Shown here piece after piece: positions 6,349 to 64,000 of a stretch of DNA of 64,000 nucleotides (position 1 is the first letter of the stretch; each line of letters begins with the position of its first letter). The translations under genes and the position numbers were made by a program. Below the pieces are notes generated by a model. The model had not been told where the DNA came from and searched no databases. It was given only the letters and a program-made list of their open reading frames with translations. The stretch covers positions 5,542 through 69,541 of the forward strand of contig CAZEEW010000004.1 in the NCBI GenBank assembly GCA_964511375.1, written 5' to 3'. Source of the DNA: an uncultured Gammaproteobacteria bacterium. GTDB lineage: Bacteria > Patescibacteriota > Patescibacteriia > Magasanikbacterales > GWA2-37-8.

Positions 6349-6374
6349 TATAATAATATAGATCAATTGAAATT

Positions 6375-15366: not shown

Positions 15367-15367
15367 C

Positions 15368-16365: not shown

Positions 16366-16367
16366 TT

Positions 16368-17480: not shown

Positions 17481-17491
17481 TATATAAATAT

Positions 17492-18070: not shown

Positions 18071-18096
18071 TTTGTTTAATTTATCTCATACACATT

Positions 18097-18939: not shown

Positions 18940-18957
18940 CAAAAGTGTGATAGAATA

Positions 18958-18993
18958 AGGTTAGTGTAGTAAAACACTAACCTTATTTATTTT
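18958..18993 (+). terminator. rho-independent terminator (AAGGTTAGTG-loop-CACTAACCTT + T-rich tail)
   Basis: Perfect 10-bp stem. Confidence 0.6.
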
Positions 18994-18995
18994 AT

Positions 18996-19304: not shown

Positions 19305-19308
19305 TAGA

Positions 19309-19337
19309 AAAGCCTCGAGTTAACTCGAGGCTTTTTT
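19309..19337. terminator. bidirectional terminator (AAGCCTCGAG-ttaa-CTCGAGGCTT + T-run)
   Basis: Perfect palindrome between convergent genes. The recJ stop codon lies in the loop. Confidence 0.65.
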
Positions 19338-21110: not shown

Positions 21111-21226
21111 TTTATTATTGGAAAATCGGCATGATGGTAAAGAAAAGCATCGCAACAATGCCAATGAGAGCGATAACCGTCCAAAGTTTTTTTGCCGTTT
21201 TATGATTCATAATTTACTAAATAGAG

Positions 21227-36483: not shown

Positions 36484-36487
36484 AGAG

Positions 36488-36793
36488 TTACTTTAATCCC
36501 GGTAAATTGAATTCACCAGATTGCTGCATCTTCATGGCTAGTGTGCGCTGGATCTTTTTCTTAGCATCTTCGTGGGCGTCTTTAATAGCGTTAACCAACT
36601 TATCTTTTTGGTCTTTGTTCATCATTTCATCATCAATAGCAAGGCCAGTAATTTTAAAAGTGCCATCCATAGTCATTACCACTTTGTCGCCAGCGGTGCG
36701 CACTGTCACGGATTCTTGGCTCATCATTTCTTCCATCTTCTTGCCTTGTTCACGCAAGTCTTTAAATTGTTTTAACTTAGATAACATTGACAT
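36488..36793 (-). CDS. ybaB: nucleoid-associated protein YbaB/EbfC
   Basis: Typical ~100-aa protein (MSMLSKLKQFKDLREQGKKMEE...) immediately upstream of recR. Confidence 0.8.
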   Translation of the reverse strand: MSMLSKLKQFKDLREQGKKMEEMMSQESVTVRTAGDKVVMTMDGTFKITGLAIDDEMMNKDQKDKLVNAIKDAHEDAKKKIQRTLAMKMQQSGEFNLPGLK

Positions 36794-36827
36794 AGCTCGT
36801 TTACATTATATTTTTAAAACTTTTAAA

Positions 36828-38300: not shown

Positions 38301-38402
38301 AGTGGAGTATATATTAACCTATTTCAACCAGGTACCGCAATAGAGAACAAAGACTAATTTGGGTATATCCTGTGTACAGGATTGGGGATTGGGGACAGGG
38401 CT

Positions 38403-38430
38403 TTGCCTTTCTTGGAATTTGGGATATAAT
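38403..38430 (+). promoter_or_regulatory. sigma-70-like promoter (TTGCCT-16-TATAAT), followed by an AGGAGA Shine-Dalgarno
   Basis: Read from the sequence. The ATG at 38447 lies 8 nt after the SD. Confidence 0.5.
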
Positions 38431-38446
38431 ACAGGAGAATTCGCCT

Positions 38447-40546
38447 ATGGAAAGAAGAAAAATAAAAGAACTGGGAGCGATTGTTTTTTTGGCTTCCTTT
38501 GCCTATTTTTTACTGACCATATATACCAACCTGGGTTTGGCCCTGGTTTTTTTATTCCTGTATTTTGGTTTAACTGGAAGATGGTACCGGGATTACTTAA
38601 TTAGCATTTTTCGCCTTGGCCGGTTGGGTACGACTTGGGTGGTTGGTGTTTTTTTAAGTTTGTTTGTTTTTGTTTCACTATCTAGCCCCTGGGTGTTGTT
38701 TTTTCGTTACACAGCCCCCGAGATTAGTGTGGTTTTTCTTTTGAGTGGCCTTTTGGCTTGGTATCTAAGAACTTATATTGTTAAGAAAGGAATATCACTA
38801 GAAAATAATATCTCTACTGAAAGCAACTCGTGGCAATTCATGCCTGGAAAGGTAATAAGCTTCTGGGTATATATTGTGGTTTTTGCTGTTGCAACTTATA
38901 TTTTGCAAAACCGACTTGGCGATGGAGTAGTGAATAGTCCGTGGCAAATAATACAAGAGGAATATATTTACGTTTACGCGTTGGCGACTTTTGTTTTGTG
39001 TTTAAATATTTTATCTAAATTACCATCACGGCAAGTTCTTTTTCTCCTCATTCTTCATACTTTTCTAACCGTTAGCTATCTACCTTTAACTCATGTTTTA
39101 ATCTATGGCGCCGACTCCTGGCGACACATGGCGACGGAGGCGCAGATTCTCGAGTCCGGACGGATTGCGCTGAAAGATTTTGGGAGTGGCTTTAATGCGA
39201 TCGTGAACGCTTTAAATCCCGGTCGTTTCTCTTACGCCTGGTTTTGGGGGCTGGGGGTAGTAGTAGCCAAACTCACGGGTGGAACTTTAATTGAGGTAAA
39301 TAAATGGTTAGGACCATTGCTTTTCACAATTGGTTTCCCGGTTCTGCTTTTTGCTTTCTTGAAAAGTTGGTTTAAAGAAGAAAGATTGCCCTTGCTCCTA
39401 GTTTGGTTATCTCTTATTTTTTTCGCTTTTCAAGTCGGTGGGGCGTTTACTTTACCTGTCAATACTGGATTTTTATTTTTTTTGGTTTTACTGATTTTAC
39501 TCACAAAACATTTAGACAACCCGCAGCCGGGACGGAAATGGTTTTTGGGCTTGCTCGGTTTCTTTAGCCTTTTTGGATATTTGGTGTACTTTATTTTATT
39601 CTTTTTAGCTTGGGGTATAATGGTCCTTACGAAAAAGAGCTGGAACGCTGGCAAAAAAAACGTGTTAATAATAGTGGGTGCGGGTATTTTAATTCCGTTT
39701 TTTGAGTTAGTGTTTAATTACAGCGATGTTTCGAAAATCAATTTATTAGGACAGATAAAACAATTGGTTGGTAATTTTACAGCTTATTACTTGGCAACTG
39801 GTCCTCGGCAGCACGACATTTTGACTGGCAACATTCTTTTTAACCAGACACCAAGCTACGCCTATGTGGGAAATTTTTTATTAGAACACAAACCATGGTT
39901 GGTAGCGGTCGCAATACTAGTTTGGGCCGGTGTAGCTTGGGGAGTTAGAGAATATTTTAGAAAGAAAGAAAGTCGTGGGATCGGAATATTGTTTTTAGGG
40001 GTGTTTGTAAGTTTGCTGATCGGAAGATACTTTTTAGTGGGTGAGCAAATTTTGTCTCGGCGCTTAGATTTAGTATTTGCACTCGGTGCAGTGTTTTTTA
40101 TCGGGTTCACTGTGAAGAGGATTTTTTCTCGTTACCAGATTGCCGAAAAAGCAACATCGAGACTGCTTGCAATTTTAGTAGTATTTATTTTTTCTTTGGC
40201 TATTACGGCGTCATATACCCTGGGACCAGATACTAATACTGTATCCTTGACCGGGTATCGCAATATGGAAGTAGTTTGGGACCAGGAAAAGGAAAACGAG
40301 AAACACTGTGTTATAGCCGATACTTATCCTTTGCTAGCCTTAGAATTCATTTCTAAAAAAGAAATTGTGGGCGGGGGATTTCCAATGAACGCGTATTTTG
40401 CCCAGCTAGAACGCGTGGCGCTATGGCAGGAGATTAAAAACAAAGGCTATTTAACCAAAGAAGAACTAGAGAAAGCCAAGGAACTAACCGGAGCAGGAGA
40501 GTGTCATATTGTCGGTGGTTCGCTTGATCCATGGTTTGGCAAGTAG
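38447..40546 (+). CDS. large polytopic membrane protein, possibly a GT-C-type (ArnT/PMT-like) glycosyltransferase
   Basis: At least 12 hydrophobic helices and a C-terminal soluble domain. Start re-picked at MERRKIKE with promoter and SD. Family call is low confidence. Confidence 0.4.
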   Translation: MERRKIKELGAIVFLASFAYFLLTIYTNLGLALVFLFLYFGLTGRWYRDYLISIFRLGRLGTTWVVGVFLSLFVFVSLSSPWVLFFRYTAPEISVVFLLSGLLAWYLRTYIVKKGISLENNISTESNSWQFMPGKVISFWVYIVVFAVATYILQNRLGDGVVNSPWQIIQEEYIYVYALATFVLCLNILSKLPSRQVLFLLILHTFLTVSYLPLTHVLIYGADSWRHMATEAQILESGRIALKDFGSGFNAIVNALNPGRFSYAWFWGLGVVVAKLTGGTLIEVNKWLGPLLFTIGFPVLLFAFLKSWFKEERLPLLLVWLSLIFFAFQVGGAFTLPVNTGFLFFLVLLILLTKHLDNPQPGRKWFLGLLGFFSLFGYLVYFILFFLAWGIMVLTKKSWNAGKKNVLIIVGAGILIPFFELVFNYSDVSKINLLGQIKQLVGNFTAYYLATGPRQHDILTGNILFNQTPSYAYVGNFLLEHKPWLVAVAILVWAGVAWGVREYFRKKESRGIGILFLGVFVSLLIGRYFLVGEQILSRRLDLVFALGAVFFIGFTVKRIFSRYQIAEKATSRLLAILVVFIFSLAITASYTLGPDTNTVSLTGYRNMEVVWDQEKENEKHCVIADTYPLLALEFISKKEIVGGGFPMNAYFAQLERVALWQEIKNKGYLTKEELEKAKELTGAGECHIVGGSLDPWFGK

Positions 40547-40616: not shown

Positions 40617-43043
40617 ATGTTTGGAAGAAAACTGCCAGAAAATCCAATTGGCATCAAAGGAGAAGAATTAAAACGATACGAACCAGCATTGGAAGTGCTA
40701 AAGCAGGAGCGGGCTGTGGTTAAGGAATTGGCCGAGGTGTATCCGCTTTACCAGGAACTTCTTAAGAACAACACAATAAAATTTGTTGCCGAACAGGGGA
40801 ACGAGGCGACCGAGCGGACAGTTTCGGTTTTGGGCGAGGAATGGGAAGATTGGTTGCGGGATGATTATCTTCGATTGGATGCCTGGTCTAGAAAGTATCT
40901 TTTGGAAATGGATCCCGGTTTAGATAGTGTGCCAGCCTTTAAAGAATTAGAGCGGATGTCTGTGCATCTGGAGCAATTGAAAGAACTAGCGGCAGATGAC
41001 GCTTCCAAGAAGCGCGAAGGGGTAGGTAGCCGGTTAAGAGAAAATTTGAGGAAACCGAACGGGGGCCAAGCTGGCCACGAAGTTATTGTTTATCCCACGG
41101 CAGATGAGCACTTAGAGGCTTCAAGGTGGGATGACTTTCTAGCTTTTTTATCTAGTAATAAGCAAATTAAAGACGGGAAGGATGTTGAATCAAGGCCTAT
41201 CTGGTGGAGAAGGGGACTAAGGAAGGCGGGGAAAGACTATAAAAAAGAAAGACTGCCGCAAGAACAATTGCGCCAAGCAGTAGCAGAACATATTACTAAA
41301 ATTGCCACTGAACAACGCACTGACATTGAAAGAAAAAATCTTTTAGAGCGAATCCAACAATTTCGGAAGTTGATTCGGATACTTAAGCGCTGGCAGGAGG
41401 TTTTATTCACTGATCAATTGCAAGATTCTTCGTTAAGAGGAGAAAGCCCCTATACTCCTTCACAAGTTAGTATAGTCAGAGAGTGTAACAGAGAACTAAT
41501 GGACCACTTACGAACGCGTGTTAATACTTTTGTGCGTCCGATAGAAGCTAACGAGAGAGGGCCTTTGCCGATCGATAACACTGTCGTCGAATTTGCCGAA
41601 GAGCTCGATGCAAAAGTAAGAGATAGTTTGGATATTCGAGAAAAGATTCGTGTTTTAAAACAGGACTTAGAGGAGTTAGCACATGGTTTAAATTTAGAAG
41701 TGCAAGAGTTAAAACAAACAGCTGAAGGTTTAGTTTGGACGTACCAGGGTTTAAGTGAAGGAGAGCAAGATTTGACAGAAAGAAAAGACAAATTGAAGCC
41801 TTTAGTGACTGGTATTGGCCAGGCACTGGAAAAAGTAGTTAGTGCTTATGGAGACGAGAAGAGTGGAGTGGTGGGCGTCCTGGACCGTCTTATGAAGATT
41901 TTGTCTGAAGCGGAAAAGCGTAATGGTCAAGCCTTTAGGCAAGTTGAGGCAATGGCCAGAGAATTGGAGGGAGCCAATCTCCGCTCTTTATATTTTCAAG
42001 AATTTGATATCACCCTACAGGGATTGCGTCAAGCGATTAGTGACGCACGGGAGTTTATCCGAGACAGAGAACAAAGGCGGTTAGCAGAAAAAGTGTTGCC
42101 AGCGCCAATGACCAAAGTTATAGACGCGGATATGGTTGATGTACGGCCTAATAGTCGTGAGGGCATACTAGATCCCGGAGAGGTCTATACAAATAACGAG
42201 GAATTACGTGTGGCGTTAGAAGACAGAGGTGGAGAATTTGGTTTGTACGCACCCTTAGTTGATTATGCGATGTTGCCACCGGAATTTTCCAAAGAGCATT
42301 TGCGGATTTTTAAAAATTATCTTGGTAAATTAGATGCATCCAGAGTACCACAAGTAAAAAATTGGGAACAGTATTTTGAAATGATGTACCCCCGATACCA
42401 AAGACCAGAAGACACACAAAGAAATTTAGTTGCTCATCGTCCAGACTGGTGGTATGAACAAGCAGATGGGAGTGATTTTTATGATAAAGAAACTTGGGGT
42501 GAGGCTTACAAACGGTCGATACAAGAAGAGTCTGAGAAATTGAGTGATAGGGTATTTCTTACTGAGAAAATACAAAAACCAAATTATACCGATGGGAGCA
42601 AACAGTATGGATCTAAAGACCATCAAGACGCGCCGCAAGACGTGCTTTTACCAATCATTCAAGAAGTATTAGGGCCAGACCATAATCGGTTTGGTAATAC
42701 GTGGGATGAAGTCAACTGGGTAGCGGAAAAAGTAAAAGAGAAAATCATCGCTGAATTGCGTTCGGCAGGGCTACCTGTCCCGAAGTTTGATATTGTGATA
42801 ACACCTGCGATTATTTCTAATTTAGAAATGATATCCAGAAATAGAGAAAATTCACAGACTAATACTTATGAGTGGACTTCAACTCCATTATTGAAAAAAG
42901 ATGGTGGTGATTACGGTTCTCGCCTGGTGGTTGGCCGCTCGGGGAAAGGTGGTGCCGGTTATATCGGCAACCTTCAACACAACGCTAGGTCAGACTCGTT
43001 GGGGTTCCGCCTCTCAGCGACGTTCAATAATCATAAACCTTAA
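40617..43043 (+). CDS. large (808-aa) soluble charged protein of unknown function
   Basis: Long uninterrupted ORF. No transmembrane or signal segment. No recognisable catalytic motif. Confidence 0.6.
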   Translation: MFGRKLPENPIGIKGEELKRYEPALEVLKQERAVVKELAEVYPLYQELLKNNTIKFVAEQGNEATERTVSVLGEEWEDWLRDDYLRLDAWSRKYLLEMDPGLDSVPAFKELERMSVHLEQLKELAADDASKKREGVGSRLRENLRKPNGGQAGHEVIVYPTADEHLEASRWDDFLAFLSSNKQIKDGKDVESRPIWWRRGLRKAGKDYKKERLPQEQLRQAVAEHITKIATEQRTDIERKNLLERIQQFRKLIRILKRWQEVLFTDQLQDSSLRGESPYTPSQVSIVRECNRELMDHLRTRVNTFVRPIEANERGPLPIDNTVVEFAEELDAKVRDSLDIREKIRVLKQDLEELAHGLNLEVQELKQTAEGLVWTYQGLSEGEQDLTERKDKLKPLVTGIGQALEKVVSAYGDEKSGVVGVLDRLMKILSEAEKRNGQAFRQVEAMARELEGANLRSLYFQEFDITLQGLRQAISDAREFIRDREQRRLAEKVLPAPMTKVIDADMVDVRPNSREGILDPGEVYTNNEELRVALEDRGGEFGLYAPLVDYAMLPPEFSKEHLRIFKNYLGKLDASRVPQVKNWEQYFEMMYPRYQRPEDTQRNLVAHRPDWWYEQADGSDFYDKETWGEAYKRSIQEESEKLSDRVFLTEKIQKPNYTDGSKQYGSKDHQDAPQDVLLPIIQEVLGPDHNRFGNTWDEVNWVAEKVKEKIIAELRSAGLPVPKFDIVITPAIISNLEMISRNRENSQTNTYEWTSTPLLKKDGGDYGSRLVVGRSGKGGAGYIGNLQHNARSDSLGFRLSATFNNHKP

Positions 43044-49588: not shown

Positions 49589-49645
49589 GAATTGAATACG
49601 CTTGTTTTTATCTCCTTGTTATTATATACTAGGCCATAGTCTTTT

Positions 49646-50242
49646 ATGATTAAACTTCTATCTATGGAAACATTAAATATGCCGTTAATAGGTAAGCAAT
49701 TGCCAGATTTAACTCTCAAAGCTTTTTTTAAGGAAGCCTTTTCCAGCATTTCTCTTAAAGAGGCCCGCGGTAAGTGGTTGATCTTATTTTTTTATCCAGC
49801 CGATTTTACTTTCGTTTGCCCAACAGAATTAGTAGAAATGGCCCAGTTATATGAGCAGTTTAAAGCCGAAGGGGCCGAAGTAATGAGCGTGAGTACTGAC
49901 ACTGAATTTGTTCACAAAGCCTGGCATGATAATTCTCCAGCCATTAAACAAATTAATTTTCCTATGTTAGCTGACCCAGCTGGTGAATTGTCCAGAGTAC
50001 TCGGCGTATATATTCCGGAAGAGGGGTTATCTTTGCGAGGCACCTTTATTATTGATCCAGAAGGTAAGATTAAAGCCTGTGAAATTCATGATAACTCAAT
50101 CGGTAGAAATGCGAATGAGTTATTAAGAAAATTACAGGCCGCTAAATTTGTTTACGAGCACAATGGAGAAGTATGCCCGGCGAGTTGGAAGCCCGGTGCT
50201 AGTACCTTAAAACCCGGTATTGAATTAGTTGGGAAGATCTAG
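49646..50242 (+). CDS. 2-Cys peroxiredoxin (AhpC/Prx1 type)
   Basis: FFYPADFTFVCPTE peroxidatic Cys motif. Resolving Cys near the C-terminus (VCPASW). Start may instead be 49664 or 49679. Confidence 0.9.
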   Translation: MIKLLSMETLNMPLIGKQLPDLTLKAFFKEAFSSISLKEARGKWLILFFYPADFTFVCPTELVEMAQLYEQFKAEGAEVMSVSTDTEFVHKAWHDNSPAIKQINFPMLADPAGELSRVLGVYIPEEGLSLRGTFIIDPEGKIKACEIHDNSIGRNANELLRKLQAAKFVYEHNGEVCPASWKPGASTLKPGIELVGKI

Positions 50243-50472
50243 TTGTTTTAGAGATTTAATAAAACTAAATTCAAGAAATAAGTTGAATGGTTTATATGGT
50301 CATTGATATCGAACTTACGTTAAACAGGTTTGGATTTGGAAACATTGCGGAAAATAAGTTTCAATTATTTTGTTTTAGGTTTTCCAAATGGAAGATTCAA
50401 GGCAAATATTCAATTTCCTTTGAGATAAATTGGCGAACAAAAAATTAAATTAAATTTTAAGAGAATTTAAAT

Positions 50473-50796
50473 ATGAATGAACTCCAAATTGAGATAATAC
50501 GCTCGGGCGAAGGCACAGAAGCTAAAAAAGGGGACAATGTCGTAGTGCACTACACTGGTACTTTTGAAGATGGGACCAAGTTTGATTCAAGTCTCGATCG
50601 CGATGATCCTTTTTCTTTTTCGCTTGGTGCTGGAATGGTGATAAAAGGTTGGGATGAAGGTGTGGTTGGTATGAAAGTAGGAGAGAAACGAAAGCTGATG
50701 ATTCCTTACCACTTAGCCTACGGTGAGTATGGTTACGGGCCAATACCGCCCAAGGCGACCCTAGTTTTTGAAGTGGAATTGTTGAAGATTTCTTAG
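50473..50796 (+). CDS. FKBP-type peptidyl-prolyl cis-trans isomerase
   Basis: [18 protein letters not shown]...[19 protein letters not shown]. Confidence 0.9.
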
Positions 50797-50816
50797 CCTT
50801 AATGTTGCTGCGGGCT

Positions 50817-50846
50817 AAAATCACCTTAACCAAGGTGATTTTATAA
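50817..50846 (+). terminator. rho-independent terminator (AAAATCACCTT-aacc-AAGGTGATTTT)
   Basis: Perfect 11-bp stem. Confidence 0.65.
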
Positions 50847-50917
50847 TACCTAATCACTTTATTGGTAGTCTTTGTTTAGGCTTGAAAATATCCGGTTTTT
50901 AAGATAATATAGCCACT

Positions 50918-54255: not shown

Positions 54256-56106
54256 ATGTTAAGCTCTCAAGAATTACGTCAAAAATATTTAGATTTTTTT
54301 AAGAGTAAGGGACATACCATAATCCCTTCGGCTTCTTTAATCCCAGAAAATGACCCAACAGTATTGTTTACTACCGCTGGCATGCATCCACTGGTGCCGT
54401 ATTTGCTTGGTGAAAAACATGCCGGAGGTACAAGACTCGCCAATGTCCAGAAATGCGTTCGCACACAAGACATTGATGAGGTGGGAGATAACCGGCATCA
54501 AACCTTTTTTGAAATGCTAGGTAACTGGTCACTTGGGGATTACTTTAAGAAAGAAGCGATTGAGTGGAGTTACGAATTTTTAACTTCAAAAGAATGGCTA
54601 GGTTTAGACGCGAAGAAATTGGCGGTATCCGTGTTCGTTGGAGATGATGATGCACCGCGCGACGAAGAATCGGCTAATATTTGGAAATCCTTGGGTATGC
54701 CGGAAGAGAGGATCGCGTATTTGCCTAAGAAAAATAACTGGTGGGGTCCAGCTGGACAAACCGGACCGTGTGGACCAGATACAGAGATGTTTTACTGGAA
54801 AGGAGATACTGAATTTCCACCTGATGGTAGTAACCCGGGTAACGATGAAGATCATTGGCTGGAAATCTGGAACGATGTATTCATGCAATATTTTAAAAAA
54901 GAAGACGGTACTTACGAGCCTTTGAAACAACAAAATGTCGATACAGGCATGGGTTTAGAGAGAACGCTTATGGTTTTGAATGGTTTCGCTGATACTTTTC
55001 AAGTAGATACTTTCTGGCCGCTAATATTAAAATTACAAAGCATTAGCGGTCACGAATATGTTGAGGGTGGTGAAGTAACTACTTCCATGAGAATTATCGC
55101 TGACCATATTCGCACTGCGACTATGATCATGGGGGATGATCGTGGTGTGGCACCGTCTAATGTTGATCAAGGCTACATTGTCCGTCGTTTAATCCGTCGG
55201 GCAGTTCGCCACGGACGACTATTGGGAATTCAGGAAAATTTTTGTTCGGAAATTTCTCGTACCGTAATTAATATTTTTAAAGATGTTTATCCTGAAGTGG
55301 GTCGGAACGAAGAGTTCATGCTACGCGAGATGGCTGCTGAAGAAAGTAAGTTTAGAAATACTATTGAGCAAGGATTGAAAGAATTCGAAAAATTAATTAA
55401 TGGTTACAGAATCGCCTTTGAGAAAACTGGTAATAATATTACCGAGATTCCTGGTAAGCAGTCTTTTAAATTGTATGACACCTTTGGTTTCCCCTTAGAA
55501 ATGACCCAAGAATTGGCTCGGGAAAACGGATTGACTGTTGACGTCAATGGTTTTGAAGAGGCATTTAAAGCTCACCAAGATTTGTCTCGTGCGGGTGCTG
55601 AGCAAAAGTTTAAAGGTGGTTTAGCAGACACAAGTGAAATGTCGACTAAGTACCATACTGCGACTCATTTATTGCATGCGGCCCTGAGAAAGGTGCTCGG
55701 CACCCATGTTGAGCAGCGCGGTAGTAATATTACAGCTGAACGACTTCGTTTTGACTTTTCTCATCCTGAAAAGTTAACGGATGAACAAAAGAAACAAGTA
55801 GAAGATTTAGTTAATGCTGCAATTCAGAAAGATTATCCAGTTAGTTTTTCCGAAATGACCGTGGCCGAAGCTAAGAATGGGGGAGCGATGGGTTTGTTTG
55901 AAGATAAATATGGTGCTAAGGTGAAAGTATATAGCATTGGTGATCCGAGCCAGCTACCAGCGGCTGATCCTAATTCACCAACCTTTAGCAAAGAAATCTG
56001 TGGCGGGCCACACGTTGAACATACGGGAGTAATTGGACGCTTTAAGATTTCTAAAGAAGAGGCCTGTAGTGCTGGTATCCGACGCATTAAAGCGATTGTT
56101 GAATAA
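54256..56106 (+). CDS. alaS: alanine--tRNA ligase, short form (catalytic + editing domains; no C-Ala/DHHA1 domain)
   Basis: N-terminal class II motifs (LFTTAGM). Editing-domain HTATHLLHAAL and CGGPHV motifs. Only 616 aa. Confidence 0.9.
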   Translation: MLSSQELRQKYLDFFKSKGHTIIPSASLIPENDPTVLFTTAGMHPLVPYLLGEKHAGGTRLANVQKCVRTQDIDEVGDNRHQTFFEMLGNWSLGDYFKKEAIEWSYEFLTSKEWLGLDAKKLAVSVFVGDDDAPRDEESANIWKSLGMPEERIAYLPKKNNWWGPAGQTGPCGPDTEMFYWKGDTEFPPDGSNPGNDEDHWLEIWNDVFMQYFKKEDGTYEPLKQQNVDTGMGLERTLMVLNGFADTFQVDTFWPLILKLQSISGHEYVEGGEVTTSMRIIADHIRTATMIMGDDRGVAPSNVDQGYIVRRLIRRAVRHGRLLGIQENFCSEISRTVINIFKDVYPEVGRNEEFMLREMAAEESKFRNTIEQGLKEFEKLINGYRIAFEKTGNNITEIPGKQSFKLYDTFGFPLEMTQELARENGLTVDVNGFEEAFKAHQDLSRAGAEQKFKGGLADTSEMSTKYHTATHLLHAALRKVLGTHVEQRGSNITAERLRFDFSHPEKLTDEQKKQVEDLVNAAIQKDYPVSFSEMTVAEAKNGGAMGLFEDKYGAKVKVYSIGDPSQLPAADPNSPTFSKEICGGPHVEHTGVIGRFKISKEEACSAGIRRIKAIVE

Positions 56107-56111
56107 TTACC

Positions 56112-56555
56112 ATGCGAGAAAAAATAGCAGCTTATTATCACAGAACCAAAAAAGAGTTTTTTCGGTACTTTGTGGTCGGAATTACCGGTGTTTTATTAGA
56201 TTTGGGGCTACTTATTGTTTTAAAAGAGTACCTTGATTGGACACCGTTCTTGTCAGTGGCTATAAGTCAGATTCTTGTTATCCTTTACAACTTCCTTCTT
56301 AATAAGTACTGGTCATTTGGTAGCAGGGACATGCCACATTGGCAGTTTGTGCGGTTTATGGTTGTTGTTGGTTTTAACTATTTAGTTTCTTTGGCTGTTA
56401 TCTACATTTTTAGCCAAAAAATGAGCTTTGATTACCGGATTGTACGACTTGCAAACATTATACTTTCGGTCAGTTGGAACTTTGTTCTGTATAAATATTG
56501 GGTATATAAGGTAGAGAAAGAAGTAGGTGGAGAGTTGCATAGTGCCCGGAAATAG
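56112..56555 (+). CDS. GtrA-family membrane protein (polysaccharide synthesis/translocation associated)
   Basis: Four transmembrane helices with FRYFVVGITGVLLDLGLL...NKYWSF. Confidence 0.65.
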   Translation: MREKIAAYYHRTKKEFFRYFVVGITGVLLDLGLLIVLKEYLDWTPFLSVAISQILVILYNFLLNKYWSFGSRDMPHWQFVRFMVVVGFNYLVSLAVIYIFSQKMSFDYRIVRLANIILSVSWNFVLYKYWVYKVEKEVGGELHSARK

Positions 56556-56589
56556 GCTAAAATATGTGTATAAAGCCGGGGCACGGGCC

Positions 56590-56618
56590 TTGACTTATTT
56601 CCAAAAATCGTTTATTAT
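56590..56618 (+). promoter_or_regulatory. sigma-70-like promoter (TTGACT-17-TATTAT) upstream of the infA-rpmJ-rpsM-rpsK-rpsD-rpoA-rplQ cluster
   Basis: Read from the sequence. Confidence 0.5.
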
Positions 56619-56642
56619 ATTCACAACCTAACATTTTATTGA

Positions 56643-56861
56643 ATGGCTAATAAGGAAGACATTATCGAGGTTAGAGGCAAAATCGAAGAGCTTTTGCCAG
56701 CCGGAACCTTTCGTGTGCTCCTCGAGAGCGGCCAAAGCATTATTGCCCATTTAGCGGGTAAAATGCGGCTTAACAAGATCCGCTTAGGGATCGGCGATGA
56801 GGTGAAGGTGGAAATGACTCCCTACGATTTAATGCGTGGGAGAATCACGTTCCGCTACTAA
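56643..56861 (+). CDS. infA: translation initiation factor IF-1
   Basis: 72-aa S1-like OB-fold protein ([42 protein letters not shown]). Confidence 0.92.
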
Positions 56862-57016
56862 CAATAAAAGCAAAATTCTGAACAATTTTAGTTCAGGAAT
56901 GAATATCAACCAGTGCGGTGGAGCCTGAAGAAAGTTTGGGCGTAGATATCGCGGCAGTGGTTGGTATTTTTTCATTAAAAAATATTTTTTCAATTTAAAA
57001 AGTAACCGTATCTACT

Positions 57017-57130
57017 ATGCAAGTCAAAGCATCGGTAAAGAAAATTTGCATGAAATGCAAAGTTTTAAGGAGAAAAGGCCGAGTGGTCGTAATCTGCAGT
57101 AATCCAAAGCATAAACAACGCCAAGGATAA
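57017..57130 (+). CDS. rpmJ: 50S ribosomal protein L36
   Basis: Manual translation gives [37 protein letters not shown]. Below the ORF-track length cutoff. Confidence 0.85.
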
Positions 57131-57153
57131 TTTTTGTATATATTTTAAAGTCT

Positions 57154-57540
57154 ATGCGTATTTCTGGTATCAATATCCCAAAGGACAAAAAGATCGGAAT
57201 TTCCCTTCGCTATTTATATGGCATTGGGCCGACTTTGTCCAAGAAAGTTTTAGCAGCTGCTAAAATTGACGAAAATATTCGTACTAAAGATTTATCTCCT
57301 GAAGATCAGGATAAACTTCGTGCGATTGTTGAAAAGAGCTATAAAACTGAAGGTGACCTTCGCCGTGAAGTTATGGCGAACATCAAACGTTTAAAAGACA
57401 TTAAGGCTTTCCGTGGTATTCGCCACATGCGCCATTTGCCAGTTCGTGGTCAAAGAACTAAAACAAATTCTCGTACTGTTCGCGGCAATGTTCGCAAAAC
57501 TGCTGTATCTGGCAAGAAGCCATCGGCACAAAAGACTTAA
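57154..57540 (+). CDS. rpsM: 30S ribosomal protein S13
   Basis: MRISGINIPKDKKIGISLRYLYGIG. Confidence 0.93.
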   Translation: MRISGINIPKDKKIGISLRYLYGIGPTLSKKVLAAAKIDENIRTKDLSPEDQDKLRAIVEKSYKTEGDLRREVMANIKRLKDIKAFRGIRHMRHLPVRGQRTKTNSRTVRGNVRKTAVSGKKPSAQKT

Positions 57541-57572
57541 ACTTAACCTCCAAGTAATTTACGAAATAAAAT

Positions 57573-58028
57573 ATGTCTGAAGAACAAAATGTACAAACCG
57601 TTGCTGCTGAATCAGCTCAAAAGGATGGTAAGGCCGCTGGTAAAGCAACGGGTAAAACCAAGAAGCGTAAAGTTGTACGTCAAGTACCAAAGGGCAATGC
57701 TTATGTCCAAGCTTCCTACAATAACACCATCGTAACGGTTACTGATCCAAATGGAAATGTTTTGGGTTGGTCTTCTGCTGGTGTAAATGGTTTTAAAGGT
57801 CCTAAGAAAGCAACTCCTTATGCCGCTAGTATGGTTGTTAAAGATGTTATGAACAAAATTGGTGATGTTGGCTTGAAGGAAGTAAATGTTTTTGTAAAAG
57901 GTATTGGTGGAGGCCGTGAAAGTGCTATTCGTGCTTTACACGCTAATGGTTTAACTGTGCTGGCTATATCTGACGTTACTCCTTTGCCACACAATGGTTG
58001 CCGTCCACCAAAGAGGCGTCGCGTCTAA
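57573..58028 (+). CDS. rpsK: 30S ribosomal protein S11
   Basis: AYVQASYNNTIVTVTDPNGNVLGWSSAG. Confidence 0.93.
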   Translation: MSEEQNVQTVAAESAQKDGKAAGKATGKTKKRKVVRQVPKGNAYVQASYNNTIVTVTDPNGNVLGWSSAGVNGFKGPKKATPYAASMVVKDVMNKIGDVGLKEVNVFVKGIGGGRESAIRALHANGLTVLAISDVTPLPHNGCRPPKRRRV

Positions 58029-58051
58029 TCCTTGGATAATATTTTGAATCT

Positions 58052-58612
58052 ATGAGTACTAATCCTATTGAAACAACTAACAAGATGAAGAAACCTGCTC
58101 CAGCTGCTAAGGGTTCTGGGCAATCCAAGAATCGTAAGGTATCTGGTTATGGTAAGCAATTGGCGGAAAAACAAAAAGCCAAAGAAGTCTATGGTTTGCG
58201 CGAACGTCAGTTTGCTAACTACGTGGCTAAGGCTGCCAAGAAAACTGGTGATACCAGCAAGATTCTGTTAGCTGAACTAGAATCTCGTTTAGATAACGTG
58301 GTATTTCGTGCTGGTTTAGCAGCTACTCGAGCTGCGGCTCGTCAGATGGTCAGTCACGGCCACATTTTATTAAATGGTCGCAAATTAACTGTTCCATCTT
58401 CTGTCGTAAAAGCCGGAGATGAGATCAAGGTATCTAACCGCGCTAAGGGTCGCAAGGGTTTTGAGACCATGCCGGAAAATTTAGCCAAATTAGAAGCACC
58501 AGCTTGGTTAACTGTAAATGCCAAAGATGTGAGCGCAAAAGTATTGAATGAACCAACGGTTGACATGCCAGCTTTTGACGCTAAATTAATCATTGAGTTC
58601 TATTCTCGTTAA
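58052..58612 (+). CDS. rpsD: 30S ribosomal protein S4
   Basis: S4 RNA-binding domain LESRLDNVVFRAGLA... Confidence 0.92.
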   Translation: MSTNPIETTNKMKKPAPAAKGSGQSKNRKVSGYGKQLAEKQKAKEVYGLRERQFANYVAKAAKKTGDTSKILLAELESRLDNVVFRAGLAATRAAARQMVSHGHILLNGRKLTVPSSVVKAGDEIKVSNRAKGRKGFETMPENLAKLEAPAWLTVNAKDVSAKVLNEPTVDMPAFDAKLIIEFYSR

Positions 58613-58631
58613 TTTTAACCACATATTTAGT

Positions 58632-59450
58632 ATGGAGAACTTTTTATTACCTTCCAAGGTAGAGTTCGCTCCTCAAAAGGAGGCCAATACCGCCAGTGTT
58701 GTGATCACCCCATGTTACCATGGTTATGGTACAACTTTGGGTAATGCACTACGCCGGGTATTGCTATCTTCTTTGCCAGGTGCGGCCGTGGAGTCATTTA
58801 AGATTAAGGGTGTTAACCACGAGTTTTCGACTGTTGATGGTGTTAAAGAAGATGTGGTGGAAATGATGTTGAACTTAAAACAATTAGTGGTTAAAGTACA
58901 TTCAGATGATCCCGTTGTCTTAACTTTAAGTAAAAAAGGACCAGGTCCAGTTACGGCTGGTGACATTACTCCAAATAGTGAAGTAGATGTTATTAATAAA
59001 GATTTAGTTATTGCCAATTTGACCTCCGCTAAGTCACTAGACATGGAAATCACTGTTAGCCGCGGACGTGGTTACAAACCAGCCGAAGATAAGGATCGTC
59101 AGTCACAAGATTTAGGTACGATTGTTATTGATTCAGTGTATACTCCAGTACGTGATGTTGGCTACGTAGTTGACTTTACTCGCGTAGGAGATATTACCAA
59201 CTTTGAAAAGTTGACTTTGAATATTGAAACTAATGGTACGATTACTCCGGAAGAAGCCATGCAACAAGCAACCAAAATTTTAATGGATCACTTTACGATT
59301 ATTTCCGGTGCCGTTGCACAAGGGGGCACCAATAAGGCGGAAGTGGTGGTGGAAGAAACCGTAGCCCCGGTTGAAACCACCGAAGAGGTTGTTTCAGAAG
59401 AAGAGTCTGAAGAACCTAGGAAAGCTAAGAAAAGCAAAAAGAAAGCTTAA
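58632..59450 (+). CDS. rpoA: DNA-directed RNA polymerase alpha subunit, N-terminal-domain-only with an acidic/basic tail (no alpha-CTD)
   Basis: MENFLLPSKVEF...ITPCYHGYGTTLGNALRRVLLSS alpha-NTD motifs. 273 aa ending ...EEESEEPRKAKKSKKKA. Start re-picked at 58632. Confidence 0.85.
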   Translation: MENFLLPSKVEFAPQKEANTASVVITPCYHGYGTTLGNALRRVLLSSLPGAAVESFKIKGVNHEFSTVDGVKEDVVEMMLNLKQLVVKVHSDDPVVLTLSKKGPGPVTAGDITPNSEVDVINKDLVIANLTSAKSLDMEITVSRGRGYKPAEDKDRQSQDLGTIVIDSVYTPVRDVGYVVDFTRVGDITNFEKLTLNIETNGTITPEEAMQQATKILMDHFTIISGAVAQGGTNKAEVVVEETVAPVETTEEVVSEEESEEPRKAKKSKKKA

Positions 59451-59473
59451 CTGTAATTATTTACCATAAAGGT

Positions 59474-59827
59474 ATGCGACACCAAAAGAAAAAAGTTACC
59501 TTGGATCGAAAAGCCGCTCCTCGACGCGCCTTACTTTCTAGCTTAGTCGAAAGCCTCGTTTTATTTGAAAAAATTAAAACTACTAAGGCGAAAGCAAAAG
59601 TTACTCGTTCCTTGGTTGAAAAATTAATCACTAAAGCTAAGAAAAATACCTTAGCGGCTCGTCGAGATATTGCCAAAGATCTTCACACTGAAAACGCTGT
59701 TAAAAAGTTGATGGAAGTTCTTGGCCCACGCTATGCTGAACGCAAGGGTGGTTTCACACGCTTAACTTTGGTTTCCAATAGCCGTAAAGGTGATGGTGCT
59801 GAAGAAGCAATTGTTGAATTCGTCTAA
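59474..59827 (+). CDS. rplQ: 50S ribosomal protein L17
   Basis: MRHQKKKVTLDRKAAPRRALL. Confidence 0.92.
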   Translation: MRHQKKKVTLDRKAAPRRALLSSLVESLVLFEKIKTTKAKAKVTRSLVEKLITKAKKNTLAARRDIAKDLHTENAVKKLMEVLGPRYAERKGGFTRLTLVSNSRKGDGAEEAIVEFV

Positions 59828-59838
59828 AGAACATATAT

Positions 59839-60204
59839 TTGAACACTATGGCTATTAAAAGACACACCGTCGTATTAGATGCCGCCGGACAAGCCCCAGG
59901 CCGTCTGGCTACTCAAATTGCGACAATTTTAATGGGTAAGAACAAACCAGATTATGTTCCACATATTGACTCTGGAGATAAGGTGGAAGTAATCAATGCA
60001 AAAGACATTGTTTTTACTGGTAAAAAGCTTGACCAGAAGGTTTATCGCCATCACACCAATCATCCTGGTGGTTTAAAAGAAACCGGAGCAAAAACTTTGT
60101 TTAAAGACAAACCAGAAGAAGTGGTTCGTTTGGCGGTAATTAAAATGTTGCCAAAGAATAAACTTCGAACTGCTCGGATGAAAAGACTTAAGATTAAGAA
60201 ATAG
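59839..60204 (+). CDS. rplM: 50S ribosomal protein L13
   Basis: ...ATILMGKNKPDYVPHIDSGDKV... Start may instead be 59848. Confidence 0.9.
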   Translation: MNTMAIKRHTVVLDAAGQAPGRLATQIATILMGKNKPDYVPHIDSGDKVEVINAKDIVFTGKKLDQKVYRHHTNHPGGLKETGAKTLFKDKPEEVVRLAVIKMLPKNKLRTARMKRLKIKK

Positions 60205-60215
60205 TAATATACACT

Positions 60216-60623
60216 ATGGCTAAAATTGTTAACAAAACCGATACTAACCGCGCAGTTGGTCGCCGCAAAAGCGCTTCTGCCCGCGTTAAGATCGACAAAG
60301 GTGCCGGTAAGATTACCGTTAATGGTAAAAACTTTACTGAATATTTTCCAGGCTTTGAATTACAGGAAACTGTCTTAGCTCCTTTAAAAGCTTTAGCTAA
60401 ATTAAAGGACTATGATATCTCTGCTAAAGTGGTTGGTGGAGGTTTAAAGGGTCAAGCTCAAGCTGTGCAATTAGGTATTGCTCGCAGCTTGGTAGTTTGG
60501 AATGAGGATTTCAAGAAAACTTTAAAAACCATTGGCTTACTTACTCGTGATGCTCGCGTAAAAGAAAGAAAGAAACCGGGTTTGAAAAAAGCTCGTCGTG
60601 CACCACAGTGGAGCAAACGTTAA
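60216..60623 (+). CDS. rpsI: 30S ribosomal protein S9
   Basis: GRRKSASARVKI...RRAPQWSKR C-terminus. Confidence 0.92.
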   Translation: MAKIVNKTDTNRAVGRRKSASARVKIDKGAGKITVNGKNFTEYFPGFELQETVLAPLKALAKLKDYDISAKVVGGGLKGQAQAVQLGIARSLVVWNEDFKKTLKTIGLLTRDARVKERKKPGLKKARRAPQWSKR

Positions 60624-60650
60624 TCCGTCTTTCATTTACAACATCTATAC

Positions 60651-60680
60651 AAAGCACCTGCAAACAGGTGCTTTTTTGTA
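60651..60680 (+). terminator. rho-independent terminator after rpsI (AGCACCTG-caaa-CAGGTGCT + T6)
   Basis: Perfect 8-bp stem. Confidence 0.65.
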
Positions 60681-60741
60681 ATTGAATAATCTCCTGTGGA
60701 TAATATTATATAACGCTCAAATATACAGTGTTTATCCAGCT

Positions 60742-60770
60742 TTGACAGAGCTGTGTGCATGATATATAAT
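60742..60770 (+). promoter_or_regulatory. consensus sigma-70 promoter (TTGACA-17-TATAAT) driving a ~130-nt unit
   Basis: Perfect hexamers and spacing read from the sequence. Confidence 0.6.
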
Positions 60771-60776
60771 CTATCC

Positions 60777-60907
60777 TTAGATATCAATTGTGAAAAAGAT
60801 TTTACAACAATGAAAGGTGTTTTTCTAATAATGAGGAAACGAGTGATGTGTTTTCATTTTCATAAAAAAAGTATTTAGACCTTGGCGTTAGGCCAGGGTC
60901 TTTTTTT
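60777..60907 (+). ncRNA. candidate small transcript (promoter-to-terminator unit) containing a 22-codon ORF (60810..60878, MKGVFLIMRKRVMCFHFHKKSI) without a Shine-Dalgarno
   Basis: Bounded by the consensus promoter at 60742-60770 and a hairpin + T7 terminator at 60878-60907. No protein-coding support. Confidence 0.3.
60878..60907 (+). terminator. rho-independent terminator (GACCTTGGC-gttag-GCCAGGGTC + T7)
   Basis: 9-bp stem with one G-U pair, followed by TTTTTTT. Confidence 0.55.
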
Positions 60908-61013
60908 GACCATTTGGTATAAAGAGGTGCAAACAATTTTGTATCCAGTGGCCAACCTCTTATTCCTAGGGCCGACTTCCGGCTCGTACGGTAATAGAGG
61001 TGGGGAGGGGAAT

Positions 61014-61202
61014 ATGTGCAACATGTGCCAGAAGACTAATGGTCAGCCGGAAAACTGGCCGACCGATCCTATGGCCTTGGCTCGTAAGGGCGGTGGTGCT
61101 GCAGGGCAGCCGTGCATGCCCTACATTCCAGGCTCTCTCGACGTTGAGCCGAAGCCCCTCGTCGAAGAGGAGCCAGACAACAAGTCGGAGCCGACCAAGT
61201 GA
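61014..61202 (+). CDS. small (62-aa) Cys-containing protein encoded in a local high-GC (~58%) patch with a strong Shine-Dalgarno
   Basis: GGTGGGGAGGGGAAT immediately precedes the ATG. Peptide MCNMCQKTNGQPENWPTDPMALARKGGGAAGQPCMPYIPGSLDVEPKPLVEEEPDNKSEPTK. GC3 is enriched relative to the host background. Confidence 0.4.
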   Translation: MCNMCQKTNGQPENWPTDPMALARKGGGAAGQPCMPYIPGSLDVEPKPLVEEEPDNKSEPTK

Positions 61203-61212
61203 TCGGCAGCCT

Positions 61213-61245
61213 AAACCAGTTTTCAGGTGGTTTTCCTGGTTTTTG
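61213..61245 (+). terminator. terminator candidate (AAACCAG-loop-CTGGTTT + TTTT), with an overlapping alternative hairpin GGTGGTTTT/AAAACCACC (61227-61254)
   Basis: Two mutually exclusive stems read directly from the sequence. Confidence 0.45.
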
Positions 61246-61438
61246 AAAACCACCCTAAAGATCTATTAATAGCAGTTTTCTTCGCTAGACAAGAATGATA
61301 AAAGTGGTAAGGTAAATATGTAATTGGTGTTTGTGAACACGGCTTTGGCCGTGTCCTTTGTTTAGATAGGGAAGTTTAGAGAACAATAACTTTATTAATT
61401 AAGGGCAGAGTAGTAATCTCTGTCGTGACAATAAATAT

Positions 61439-62269
61439 ATGGCTTTAAAAATTATGCGTTCATCATCCAAGGAATTTAAACCGCGAGTAAACATGTTGGT
61501 ATATGGACATGGTGGAGTGGGTAAAACAACTTTTGCCGCTTCCGCTCCCAAACCGATCTTTGCGGATTGTGAAGGCGGCACAAATTATTTTGGCCGGCGG
61601 GGGATAGAAGTTGATGTGGCGAGAATTTTAACCTGGAAGGACATGGAAGAGTTTTATCTTATGATCAAAGACAGTGACTACGAGACTATTATTATTGATC
61701 CAGCGAATGAAGCCTTAGAGAAGTTGATTACCCACCTTAAGGAGACCGGTAATTATACTAACAAGGCCGAAGGTTTGACCCTACAGGGTTGGGGAGTGGC
61801 GAAAGATAAAATGCGTTCATTTCTAAAAGCCATGCGTGATTTAGATAAACATATTGTTATTATTGCACATGTGGAAGAAAAGCAAGATGAAGGCCAAGTA
61901 CTTAAAAAGCGTCCTAAGCTGCAAGCTAACTTATCCCAAGAATTAATCGACATGATGGATATTGTTGCTTACATGCAAGTAATTAAAACTATTGACGGGG
62001 GAGTGAAGCGAATTTTACGGGTTCAACCAGAGAGTGATGTATACGAGGCAAAAGATCGGACTGGTGTGCTCGGAACAGTTATCGAGCCGGACTTTGAGAA
62101 GATCGTTGAAGCGGTGGTGGAGAACAAACAATTTGCTTGGACAAAGGAATTAGATGTACGAACTAGAGAAAACCTTCAGGAATTTGAAAGTGGACTAGAA
62201 ATTAAGAAGTTTGGTGATGTCGAAAAACAGGAAACGAAAAAGGCGAAAGAAAAACAAAAGGCGGACTAG
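61439..62269 (+). CDS. phage-type AAA_24 family ATPase (Sak4-like recombination/annealing-associated ATPase)
   Basis: N-terminal Walker A MLVYGHGGVGKTTFA followed by KPIFADCEGG, matching the AAA_24 pattern. ~250-aa size. Lys-rich C-terminus. Start could instead be 61454. Confidence 0.65.
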   Translation: MALKIMRSSSKEFKPRVNMLVYGHGGVGKTTFAASAPKPIFADCEGGTNYFGRRGIEVDVARILTWKDMEEFYLMIKDSDYETIIIDPANEALEKLITHLKETGNYTNKAEGLTLQGWGVAKDKMRSFLKAMRDLDKHIVIIAHVEEKQDEGQVLKKRPKLQANLSQELIDMMDIVAYMQVIKTIDGGVKRILRVQPESDVYEAKDRTGVLGTVIEPDFEKIVEAVVENKQFAWTKELDVRTRENLQEFESGLEIKKFGDVEKQETKKAKEKQKAD

Positions 62270-62324
62270 TCGTCTTGTGTTATAATTGCCTTTTAAGCCA
62301 TTTTCCGGTAAAATACTTAGGATT

Positions 62325-63761
62325 ATGGCTTATACCGTTACCCAAAATACTAGCTTTTTAACTTTAGCTTCCGTATTACAAAAGATTATCTCTTTTGTAT
62401 ATTTTACGATCATCGCTCGGATTATTGGTGTAGAGAATACCGGGCAATATTTTTTCGCAATTGCTTTTACTACAATCTTTACAGTCGTGGCGGACTTTGG
62501 TTTAGGACCAGTTTTTACCCGAGAAGTAGCCCGGGCACCCGAAAAGTCAGAGAAGTATCTAAATACCGTAATTACCACTAAGATCCTGTTTGGTTTAGCC
62601 GCATACTTGTTAGTAGTTTTGTTTGCTAATCTTTTGAATTATCCAATGCTTACCAAACATTTGATCTACCTTTCCGGTATCACCATGTTTTTTGACAATC
62701 TACACGCTGGTTATTATGCTCTGTTTCGAGCCAGGAAGAACTTAGTGTACGAAGCAATTGGTTTGGTTGGTTCGCAATTCCTAACTCTGGTTATTGGCAC
62801 GGTGGCCTTGGTATTAAAATGGTCTTTAATCTGGCTCATCATTGCGTATACTATTCCGGCCTTTTTAAATTTCATATTCTCTGGTTTATCTGCCAAAAGA
62901 GTATTTAAGTTAAAATACTATTTTTCTTTGTCTAAGGATATTTTGAAATGGCTGCTGCCCATGGCATTGCCTTTTGCGATCGCTGGTCTTTTGGGTCGAT
63001 TGTACTCTTACAGCGACTCTATTCTCATGTCCAAATTTTTATCTTCTGACGCGCTCGGTTACTGGAGTGTGCCTTACAAAATTACTTTTGCTTTCCAGTT
63101 TATCCCGATTGCCTTAGCCACCAGTGTTTATCCGGTCATGAGCGGATTGCATGTCAGTGAACCGAACAAAATTGGGGAGTTATTTCAAAAGTCTTGGCGG
63201 TATCTGTTTATGATCGTTTTTCCTTTGTCGCTGGGGGTGATCACCTTGGCGGAACCAATTATTTTGCATTTATATAAACCGACATTCGCTCCTTCCATTC
63301 CGGTTCTACAGATTCTTATGGTAAGCTTAATTTTTGGTTATCTAGGATTTATTACTACTGCTTTAATTAACGCAACAAATCATCAGAAGGTGCAAACCAG
63401 TTTAGTTGCCGTTGCTTTAGTAGTTAATTTATCCTTAAATTTTTTCTTACTGCCGCGGCACGGCATTCAAGGCGCGGCCTTGGCGGCATTGGGTAGTAAT
63501 ATCACCTTATGTCTTTTAGGTTATTACTTTTCTAGTCGTTATGTGAAGTTAAATCACGGCCTGATTACGAGTTATTTATTGAGTAGCTTATTCGCCGCAC
63601 TAATCATGGCTGTGGTAGTTTGGTATCTTTCAACAACAGTTCATTACCTTTTAATCATTCCCATTGGTGCCTTAGTTTACATTATAATGTTATTCCTCGT
63701 TAAAGGTGTAACTATGGAAATGGTAAGAGAAGCTAAAAGAAAAATATTTAAAACTACCTAA
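62325..63761 (+). CDS. Wzx-type polysaccharide/oligosaccharide flippase (MOP superfamily)
   Basis: Twelve to fourteen transmembrane helices (LQKIISFVYFTIIARIIGVENTGQYF...). Start re-picked at the ATG at 62325, after TATAAT at 62281-62286. Confidence 0.75.
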   Translation: MAYTVTQNTSFLTLASVLQKIISFVYFTIIARIIGVENTGQYFFAIAFTTIFTVVADFGLGPVFTREVARAPEKSEKYLNTVITTKILFGLAAYLLVVLFANLLNYPMLTKHLIYLSGITMFFDNLHAGYYALFRARKNLVYEAIGLVGSQFLTLVIGTVALVLKWSLIWLIIAYTIPAFLNFIFSGLSAKRVFKLKYYFSLSKDILKWLLPMALPFAIAGLLGRLYSYSDSILMSKFLSSDALGYWSVPYKITFAFQFIPIALATSVYPVMSGLHVSEPNKIGELFQKSWRYLFMIVFPLSLGVITLAEPIILHLYKPTFAPSIPVLQILMVSLIFGYLGFITTALINATNHQKVQTSLVAVALVVNLSLNFFLLPRHGIQGAALAALGSNITLCLLGYYFSSRYVKLNHGLITSYLLSSLFAALIMAVVVWYLSTTVHYLLIIPIGALVYIIMLFLVKGVTMEMVREAKRKIFKTT

Positions 63762-63762
63762 T

Positions 63763-64000
63763 ATGTCTACGGTTATTGTTACCAAACATTTTCCACCCGA
63801 AGTAAGTAGTAAAAGTTTCTTTTTACGAAATTTAGCTACTCATTTAACGGGAGATAATATAATTTTAGCACCTGAAGTAAAAAATAAAACAGGATCCATG
63901 GTGGATGAGAAAAACGTAAAGCGTATTAGTTTTTCCGGATTAGTATTGCCAAGTTCGTATAAAATATATTCCGAACTTAAGAAGACTCTGAAAGGTATGC
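63763..64000 (+). CDS. glycosyltransferase (GT4-like N-terminus), 3'-truncated at window edge
   Basis: MSTVIVTKHFPPEV resembles a GT4 N-terminal start. ORF runs off the window. Confidence 0.45.
   Translation, partial: MSTVIVTKHFPPEVSSKSFFLRNLATHLTGDNIILAPEVKNKTGSMVDEKNVKRISFSGLVLPSSYKIYSELKKTLKGM

Follow-up and report, generated by a model that had tools for sequence, protein, structure and literature searches.

Results

Genes and features of the locus

The window, by which we mean the whole 64,000-nucleotide stretch of DNA that was analyzed, carries at 61439-62269 a single AAA_24 gene set between the end of a ribosomal-protein/rpoA operon and a polysaccharide flippase gene. The genes upstream of it are, in order, mnmA, DUF4153, alaS, gtrA, infA, rpsM, rpsK, rpsD, rpoA, rplQ, rplM and rpsI, and its downstream neighbor is assigned by Pfam to Polysacc_synt, a flippase of the Wzx type. 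The AlaS protein of the window is 74-89% identical to MAG proteins of Patescibacteria, the Parcubacteria group and Candidatus Magasanikbacteria, and given these identities the host is a CPR (candidate-phyla-radiation) bacterium. The features to which we refer are as follows; L102, L106 and L113 are loci of related bacteria that are described below.

60216..60623, + strand: rpsI, last gene of the ribosomal-protein/rpoA operon, ancestral left flank
60624..62310, no strand assigned: extra segment of ~1.7 kb by comparison with L113, in which the rpsI-flippase junction is empty and the spacer is 73 bp
60651..60674, + strand: terminator-like hairpin and T-run directly 3' of rpsI, resembling the rpsI terminator of L106
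60742..60770, + strand: 12/12 match to the sigma-70 consensus (TTGACA-17-TATAAT), candidate promoter in the spacer
60877..60911, + strand: terminator-like hairpin and T7 run, 86% conserved with the hairpin directly 3' of rpsI in L102
60912..61215, + strand: GC-rich insert of ~304 nt, missing from L102, holding an orphan ORF
61216..61262, + strand: second hairpin, 87% conserved with L102 1504-1548
61439..62269, + strand: Sak4-like AAA_24 RecA-core ATPase gene, intact; Walker A G23-T30, Walker B IIIDP with D87
62325..63761, + strand: Wzx-type polysaccharide flippase, ancestral right flank, 61% full-length identity to the flippase of L113

Family, motifs and predicted fold

The ORF encodes 276 aa from an ATG start on the + strand. 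Some automatic gene calls begin at M19 instead and give 258 aa (P0001), but the first 18 residues have counterparts at the N-termini of homologues, and we therefore regard the ATG at 61439 as the true start. The earlier note on this DNA had read the gene, from its letters alone, as a phage-type AAA_24 (Sak4-like) ATPase and had quoted two motifs, both of which are present: the Walker A stretch VYGHGGVGKTTFA occupies residues 21-33, and KPIFADCEGG residues 38-47. That assignment is borne out by profile searches. The Pfam comparison which the note had proposed as a check finds AAA_24 along the full length of the domain (positions 3-195 of 195 in the profile; 126.5 bits, cut-off 27, E = 1.5e-36) and neither a RecA nor a KaiC family at E <= 0.1, and PHROG_124, the ‘Sak4-like ssDNA annealing protein’, matches at E = 1.3e-50. 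With the narrower NCBIfam equivalog TIGR01618 (phage_P_loop) the score is 53.1 bits, below the cut-off of 138.75, and on this score the gene is related to that family without being a member of it. The protein retains 17/17 of the invariant columns of a 44-sequence alignment, and the kept residues include G23, G28, K29, T30, D43, E45, D87, E91, H144, D206 and R207. The ORF is a full-length AAA_24/Sak4-like RecA-core ATPase.

An AlphaFold model built on the same 44-sequence alignment (pLDDT 89.3) predicts a RecA-like core with no additional domain at either terminus. The PDB structure that it matches best, Sak4 of staphylococcal phage 52A (8rc5; E = 5e-9, target-normalized TM 0.76), is also reached by a sequence-profile search (E = 2.7e-9), and the next structural matches are RAD51 paralogues, RAD51, RadA and RecA. 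The likeness of the protein to RecA proper and to KaiC is structural only.

A gene standing alone

The gene had also been described as standing without SSB, nuclease or integrase partners, and this description holds: there are host genes on both sides, and tblastn finds no exonuclease or SSB homologue beside the gene or elsewhere in the window. Those ORFs of the window that do match phage loci in local blastp searches are host genes, namely Era, an epimerase, DnaB, a TrwB-like protein and ClpB. Scanning the entire window for tRNAs finds none, which leaves no tRNA att site, and a repeat search across the insert returns short repeats at chance level only, with no att-like flanking direct repeats. 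What surrounds the gene is thus not an intact prophage, as its flanks are orthologous host genes (adjacent to one another in L113) and flanking repeats are missing. PADLOC gives no significant match, the best being mad8 at E = 0.0033 without a matched stretch, and no defense genes were found near the AAA_24 gene. Elsewhere in the window, RecR, YbaB and DnaB are encoded consecutively at 35881-38300 on the - strand, and the host therefore has at least part of a RecOR-type pathway alongside the lone Sak4. At 38372-40546 and 40617-43043 lie two large neighboring ORFs (724 and 808 aa) with no Pfam match at E <= 0.001.

Relatives of the gene

Proteins more than 55% identical to the query make up only about six 90%-identity clusters in a collection of 5.8 billion proteins, which argues that this is not a widespread host gene. 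The nearest phage-borne relatives (P0004 and P0005, 65-67% identical) are found on contigs of phages, together with terminase, QueC/7-deazaguanine and TAGT genes, and a further relative (P0006, 56% identical) is encoded 1.2 kb from an integrase. Two cellular relatives are closer. One (P0002, in L001; 76% identical) is a second lone copy, surrounded by housekeeping genes, between an M23 peptidase gene and ftsQ/femAB in a different CPR-like genome. The other, 89-91% identical, lies downstream of rpsI in a related species represented by a JGI metagenome contig (L102), the ribosomal genes of which are 75% identical in nucleotide sequence to those of the window and 87% to those of L106. In L102 an ORF of 327 aa stands between rpsI and AAA_24, and the contig ends inside AAA_24; we considered this ORF as a possible phage gene and rejected it, as it belongs to a cellular family of Patescibacteria hypothetical proteins. 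The notion of a mobile cassette was also rejected, since homology of the window to the L001 or L102 copy is confined to the ORF itself.

The wider family is mostly phage-borne, with members on 152 IMG/VR contigs and in 447 GenBank phage records, and its homologues in cultured phages are ~18-31% identical and annotated as Sak4-like, phage nucleotide-binding or RecA-like. A phylogeny against phage and cellular proteins had been suggested earlier, and in the neighbor-joining tree that we computed the cellular copies (window, L102 and L001) form one clade that is nested among phage sequences. Family members of <=53% identity nearly all have an exonuclease and/or SSB gene immediately downstream, whereas the subclade of the window has neither adjacent to it even on phage contigs (L002, L003 and L095). 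Judged by this gene order, the missing partners are in part a property of the subclade, and not just of a stranded copy.

An insertion at a variable site

In a relative with 80% identical AlaS (L113), rpsI is followed 86 nt later by the orthologous flippase gene, and then by glycosyltransferases and Wzy. By blastn, window 60001-60623 corresponds to L113 6710-7320 and window 62311-63397 to L113 7394-8479; homology thus breaks at 60623, resumes at 62311, and leaves ~1.7 kb of extra DNA in the window. The sole conserved gene within 60624-62310 is AAA_24, and its stop codon falls ~40 nt short of the point where homology to L113 resumes.

Other Patescibacteria differ at the same junction. In L106-108, the closest relative found (AlaS 89%), rpsI is followed by a 69-aa ORF, AAA_24, Lin1244_N, DUF1064 and a ParB-methylase, a run of genes that constitutes a prophage; its AAA_24 is of a quite different subfamily that is unalignable with the window copy. 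In L009 and L007 the order is rpsI, AAA_24 (46% identical), a PD-(D/E)XK exonuclease and a methylase, and in L103 it is rpsI, AAA_24 (45%), exonuclease, a DnaD-like protein, HNH, deformylase and an Acb2/Tad1-like protein. A phage of the L009 type is also found after dinB in L006 and L008, where the gene at the boundary is again AAA_24, followed downstream by terminase and portal genes. Between rpsI and the flippase gene of L111 (AlaS 82%; 16401-21781) there is a 5 kb cargo of EamA, MazG, Pyr_excise and two FemAB genes. The junction is thus found empty (L113, 7320-7407), with cargo (L111) and with prophages (L106, 16409-21851; L007; L009; L103), and this comparison of gene orders suggests that the rpsI-wzx spacer is a variable prophage hot spot across Patescibacteria. 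We rejected assembly chimerism as the source of the rpsI-prophage junctions, as they recur in independent assemblies and samples and in divergent hosts (L007, L009, L103 and L106-108). The prophages at the rpsI site carry other AAA_24 subclades (45-47% identical, or unalignable in the case of L106), and no prophage of the window's own subclade was seen there.

Several further observations concern these contigs. A leader starting AAGGTCG is conserved ~75 nt upstream of AAA_24 in L006-L009, L072, L081 and L083, and within one phage group it is the point where phage homology begins beside the host flank. L006 has a gene order in common with a Candidatus Uhrbacteria contig (L008) at ~70% nucleotide identity, L007 and L009 have the alaS-to-rpsI arrangement in common with the window, and the ‘Gammaproteobacteria’ label of L006, L007 and L009 looks wrong on the evidence of their sequences.

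The spacer upstream of the gene

The 815 bp between rpsI and AAA_24 are a patchwork of inserted pieces. Relative to L102 there are an extra 253 nt between the rpsI stop codon and the L102-type terminator (window 60624-60905), and the hairpins at 60877-60911 and 61216-61262, which are neighbors in L102, are split in the window by the GC-rich insert of ~304 nt. A transcript running from the sigma-70 consensus at 60742-60770 to the hairpin and T7 run could be a small one of ~110-130 nt. No convincing promoter was found directly upstream of the AAA_24 gene, and the gene is without a Shine-Dalgarno motif, as is usual for this host, in which only 7% of genes have one.

The orphan ORF within the insert (61015-61202; 61 aa) has a GC content of 0.60, where the host mean is 0.415, and a strong GGGGAGGGG Shine-Dalgarno motif, although just 7% of host genes have such a motif at all. 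Neither Pfam nor PHROG matches it and no homologue exists among 1.84 billion representatives; a longer reading of 106 aa is likewise without a match in Pfam, NCBIfam or PADLOC. As a partner gene for AAA_24 it was rejected on the lack of a PHROG match and of any homologue among those representatives. The patch has an RNA fold z-score of -2.9, and its identification with a known RNA was rejected, as an Rfam scan of 56000-64000 at E <= 1 returned nothing. The insert is of foreign origin and has no relation to AAA_24. A 12-nt string, AAGTCGGAGCCG, is common to this patch (61183-61194) and the L103 junction; the match may be due to chance and is too short for interpretation.

Constraint on the gene

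Between the window and L102 the AAA_24 proteins are 89% identical and the third codon positions of their genes 48% identical, with dN at 0.068 and dS saturated. As neither YN00 nor NG86 could estimate dS under this synonymous saturation, we rely on dN and third-position identity and give no omega. For the adjacent rpsI, rplM and rplQ the same comparison yields protein identities of 82-88% at similar third-position identity, so that the AAA_24 protein is better conserved than its ribosomal neighbors. Relative-rate counts for window vs L102 are balanced with three outgroups (4 vs 8, 5 vs 6 and 6 vs 6) and are 11 vs 3 with a fourth, L002 (P0004); for window vs L001 they are 18 vs 18 and 16 vs 12.

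We also examined the 65 columns that are >=90% conserved across the wider family. The window protein deviates at 10 of these, and the identical ten deviate in L102; the phage-borne P0004 and P0005 deviate at 14 each, and P0003, which is unplaced, at 10. Given that the ten are those of L102 and that other members of the subclade deviate at 10-14, these changes are signatures of the subclade and not damage, and there are no deviations specific to the lone copies. The composition of the gene (GC 0.413, GC3 0.394) lies close to the host means (0.415 and 0.372), and in codon-usage distance it ranks 19 of 54 genes. In sum, the gene has no sign of decay and no acceleration of rate. The purifying selection that these figures reflect could have acted partly in phages, since the L102 copy may be either lone or the head of a prophage, its contig ending within the gene.

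Discussion

Characterized Sak4 proteins bind ssDNA and anneal complementary strands in an ATP-dependent manner without strand exchange (PMC5928155), and Sak4 of phage 52A forms filaments (PMC11846896). The sak4 genes usually lie near a distant ssb homologue, and the cognate SSB strongly stimulates Sak4 (PMC5928155). Like the Sak4 proteins of HK620 and 52A, the window protein is an ATPase with the RecA core alone; its length falls in their range of ~220-280 aa and its Walker A motif lies close to the N-terminus. It resembles them in fold (TM 0.76 to 8rc5) and, at profile level, in sequence. Unlike them, it is encoded in a bacterial chromosome without an adjacent cognate SSB gene, and its identity to cultured-phage proteins is no more than ~18-31%. 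Its likeness to the modules of AAA_24, PD-(D/E)XK exonuclease and SSB (L099, L101, L006-L009 and L103) lies in an AAA_24 protein of 45-53% identity and in the placement of that gene first by the host flank, several times next to rpsI, but both partner genes are missing from the window, as they are from its closest phage relatives (L002, L003 and L095).

A familiar precedent is recET of the E. coli Rac prophage, recombinase genes of a cryptic prophage that is unable to form virions. Rac is still a multi-gene remnant in which the integrase and att sites are present. In both cases the host chromosome has kept a recombination gene of phage origin; unlike Rac, the window retains a single gene between ancestral host neighbors, and its product is of the Rad51/RecA-like class and not of the RecT class. 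Sak4 has also been proposed as an analogue of mediators of the RadB and RAD51-paralogue type (PMC5928155). With archaeal RadB and the eukaryotic RAD51 paralogues the window protein shares a core-only RecA-fold ATPase, with structural matches at probability 1.0, but it has no detectable family-level sequence membership among them.

Taken together, we consider it probable, though well short of certain, that the gene is what remains of a temperate Patescibacteria phage, a single-gene relic kept by selection and a candidate annealase. Such a phage would have inserted itself immediately 3' of the rpsI terminator, AAA_24 being its outermost gene and adjoining rpsI, and the remainder of the prophage would later have been deleted to leave the ~1.7-kb insert between rpsI and the wzx flippase gene; deletion of the rest of an rpsI-site prophage would leave exactly the arrangement of the window. 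The stranded gene would then have been kept under purifying selection, its composition by now host-like. By analogy with Sak4, the protein would bind ATP, coat ssDNA as a filament and anneal complementary strands, with the host SSB standing in for the cognate phage SSB, and we infer on this analogy a retained ATP-dependent ssDNA annealase that works with host SSB. Its predicted role would be in recombinational repair or in recombination with incoming phage DNA. Of the three origins that the earlier note had offered for the gene, the remnant of a decayed prophage is favored by the empty site of L113 and the whole prophages at the rpsI site elsewhere, and a domesticated gene is in effect what a retained remnant amounts to, given the purifying selection and host-like composition; the third, an uncharacterized anti-phage function, found no backing in PADLOC beyond sub-threshold noise. 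As for the number of events, one gain followed by one loss or replacement in L106 has no advantage in parsimony over two independent captures, nor they over it.

Not all of these observations speak for retention. The rapid turnover of the site (empty in L113, cargo in L111, prophages in L106, L007, L009 and L103), the patchwork of inserted pieces in the spacer, the lack of a clear promoter upstream of AAA_24 and the great rarity of the subclade would all suit a gene without a host role, stranded by a prophage deletion so recently that there was too little time for it to decay. We think a neutral leftover of this kind unlikely, however, as an 89% identical protein occupies the same site in L102, at a distance over which the flanking ribosomal genes are synonymously saturated, and as composition and codon usage are indistinguishable from those of the host; nor are there surplus changes at conserved positions or an accelerated rate, and the insert ends ~40 nt past the stop codon of an ORF that is exactly whole. 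A host might, alternatively, keep a lone Sak4 in order to interfere with or exploit related incoming phages, for example by poisoning recombinase filaments, by serving as a decoy for factors that target recombinases, or by offering homology for integration near rpsI. Defense systems and satellites are known to target the recombinases of phages, Sak4 among them (PMC11846896; for AbiK and sak genes, PMC3177184), and several unrelated prophages have AAA_24 right at the rpsI junction. Such an interaction strikes us as improbable, given the lack of a significant PADLOC match (mad8, E = 0.0033) or of nearby defense genes; the same-site prophage AAA_24 proteins, at <=47% identity, are moreover too divergent for homologous integration.

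Last, the order of descent might be reversed, such that an ancient, vertically inherited recombination mediator of Patescibacteria was taken up by phages from their host. The single clade formed by the window, L102 and L001 copies and the host-like composition would fit such a history, but it would have to account for the absence of the gene at this locus in the close relatives L113, L111 and L106, for a family that is overwhelmingly phage-borne (the 152 IMG/VR contigs and 447 GenBank phage records cited above), and for a cellular clade that is tiny and nested inside phage sequences, phage sequences being basal on both sides in the present sampling of a handful of genomes; we give it very little credence. 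Returning to the retained relic of a temperate phage, one may go further and combine a post-rpsI integration hot spot for unrelated phages that carry AAA_24 at their edge with a true domestication of the protein by the host, as an ssDNA-annealing or RecA-mediator protein, in one Magasanikbacteria-like lineage. We regard this combination as possible but doubtful. If true, such a domestication would be a rarity, in that a Rad51/RecA-like annealase of phage origin would have become a cellular recombination factor in a bacterium of reduced genome.

A phage Sak4-like recombinase left behind in a host chromosome is in itself a well-understood object and a fairly ordinary outcome, and the recurrent prophage hot spot that appears to lie after rpsI is more notable than the gene. 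For CPR hosts little is known of the links to their phages or of the recombination machinery, and the series of states at this one site (empty, cargo, full prophages and a single gene) ties uncultured phages to such hosts. That the gene seems to have been retained for long suggests that bacteria with small genomes may keep single useful phage genes, and if the protein does work with the host SSB it may offer a compact annealase for recombineering, a use for which HK620 Sak4 has been assayed with oligonucleotides in E. coli.

Two minor observations on the related contigs may be added. In L106, a 152-aa ORF, a Virulence_RhuM gene and a 306-aa ORF lie at 4424-6878, between zf_Tbcl_2 and mnmA; these extra genes are unalignable with window ~49600-50900 and mark a second variable spot. 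The hairpin fold of Acb2/Tad1 is known from phage sponges of immune signaling nucleotides, and the L103 prophage encodes an Acb2/Tad1 hairpin-domain protein as well as a peptide deformylase (16309-16740 and 14946-15638, respectively), an enzyme that phage L099 also encodes (13380-13910).
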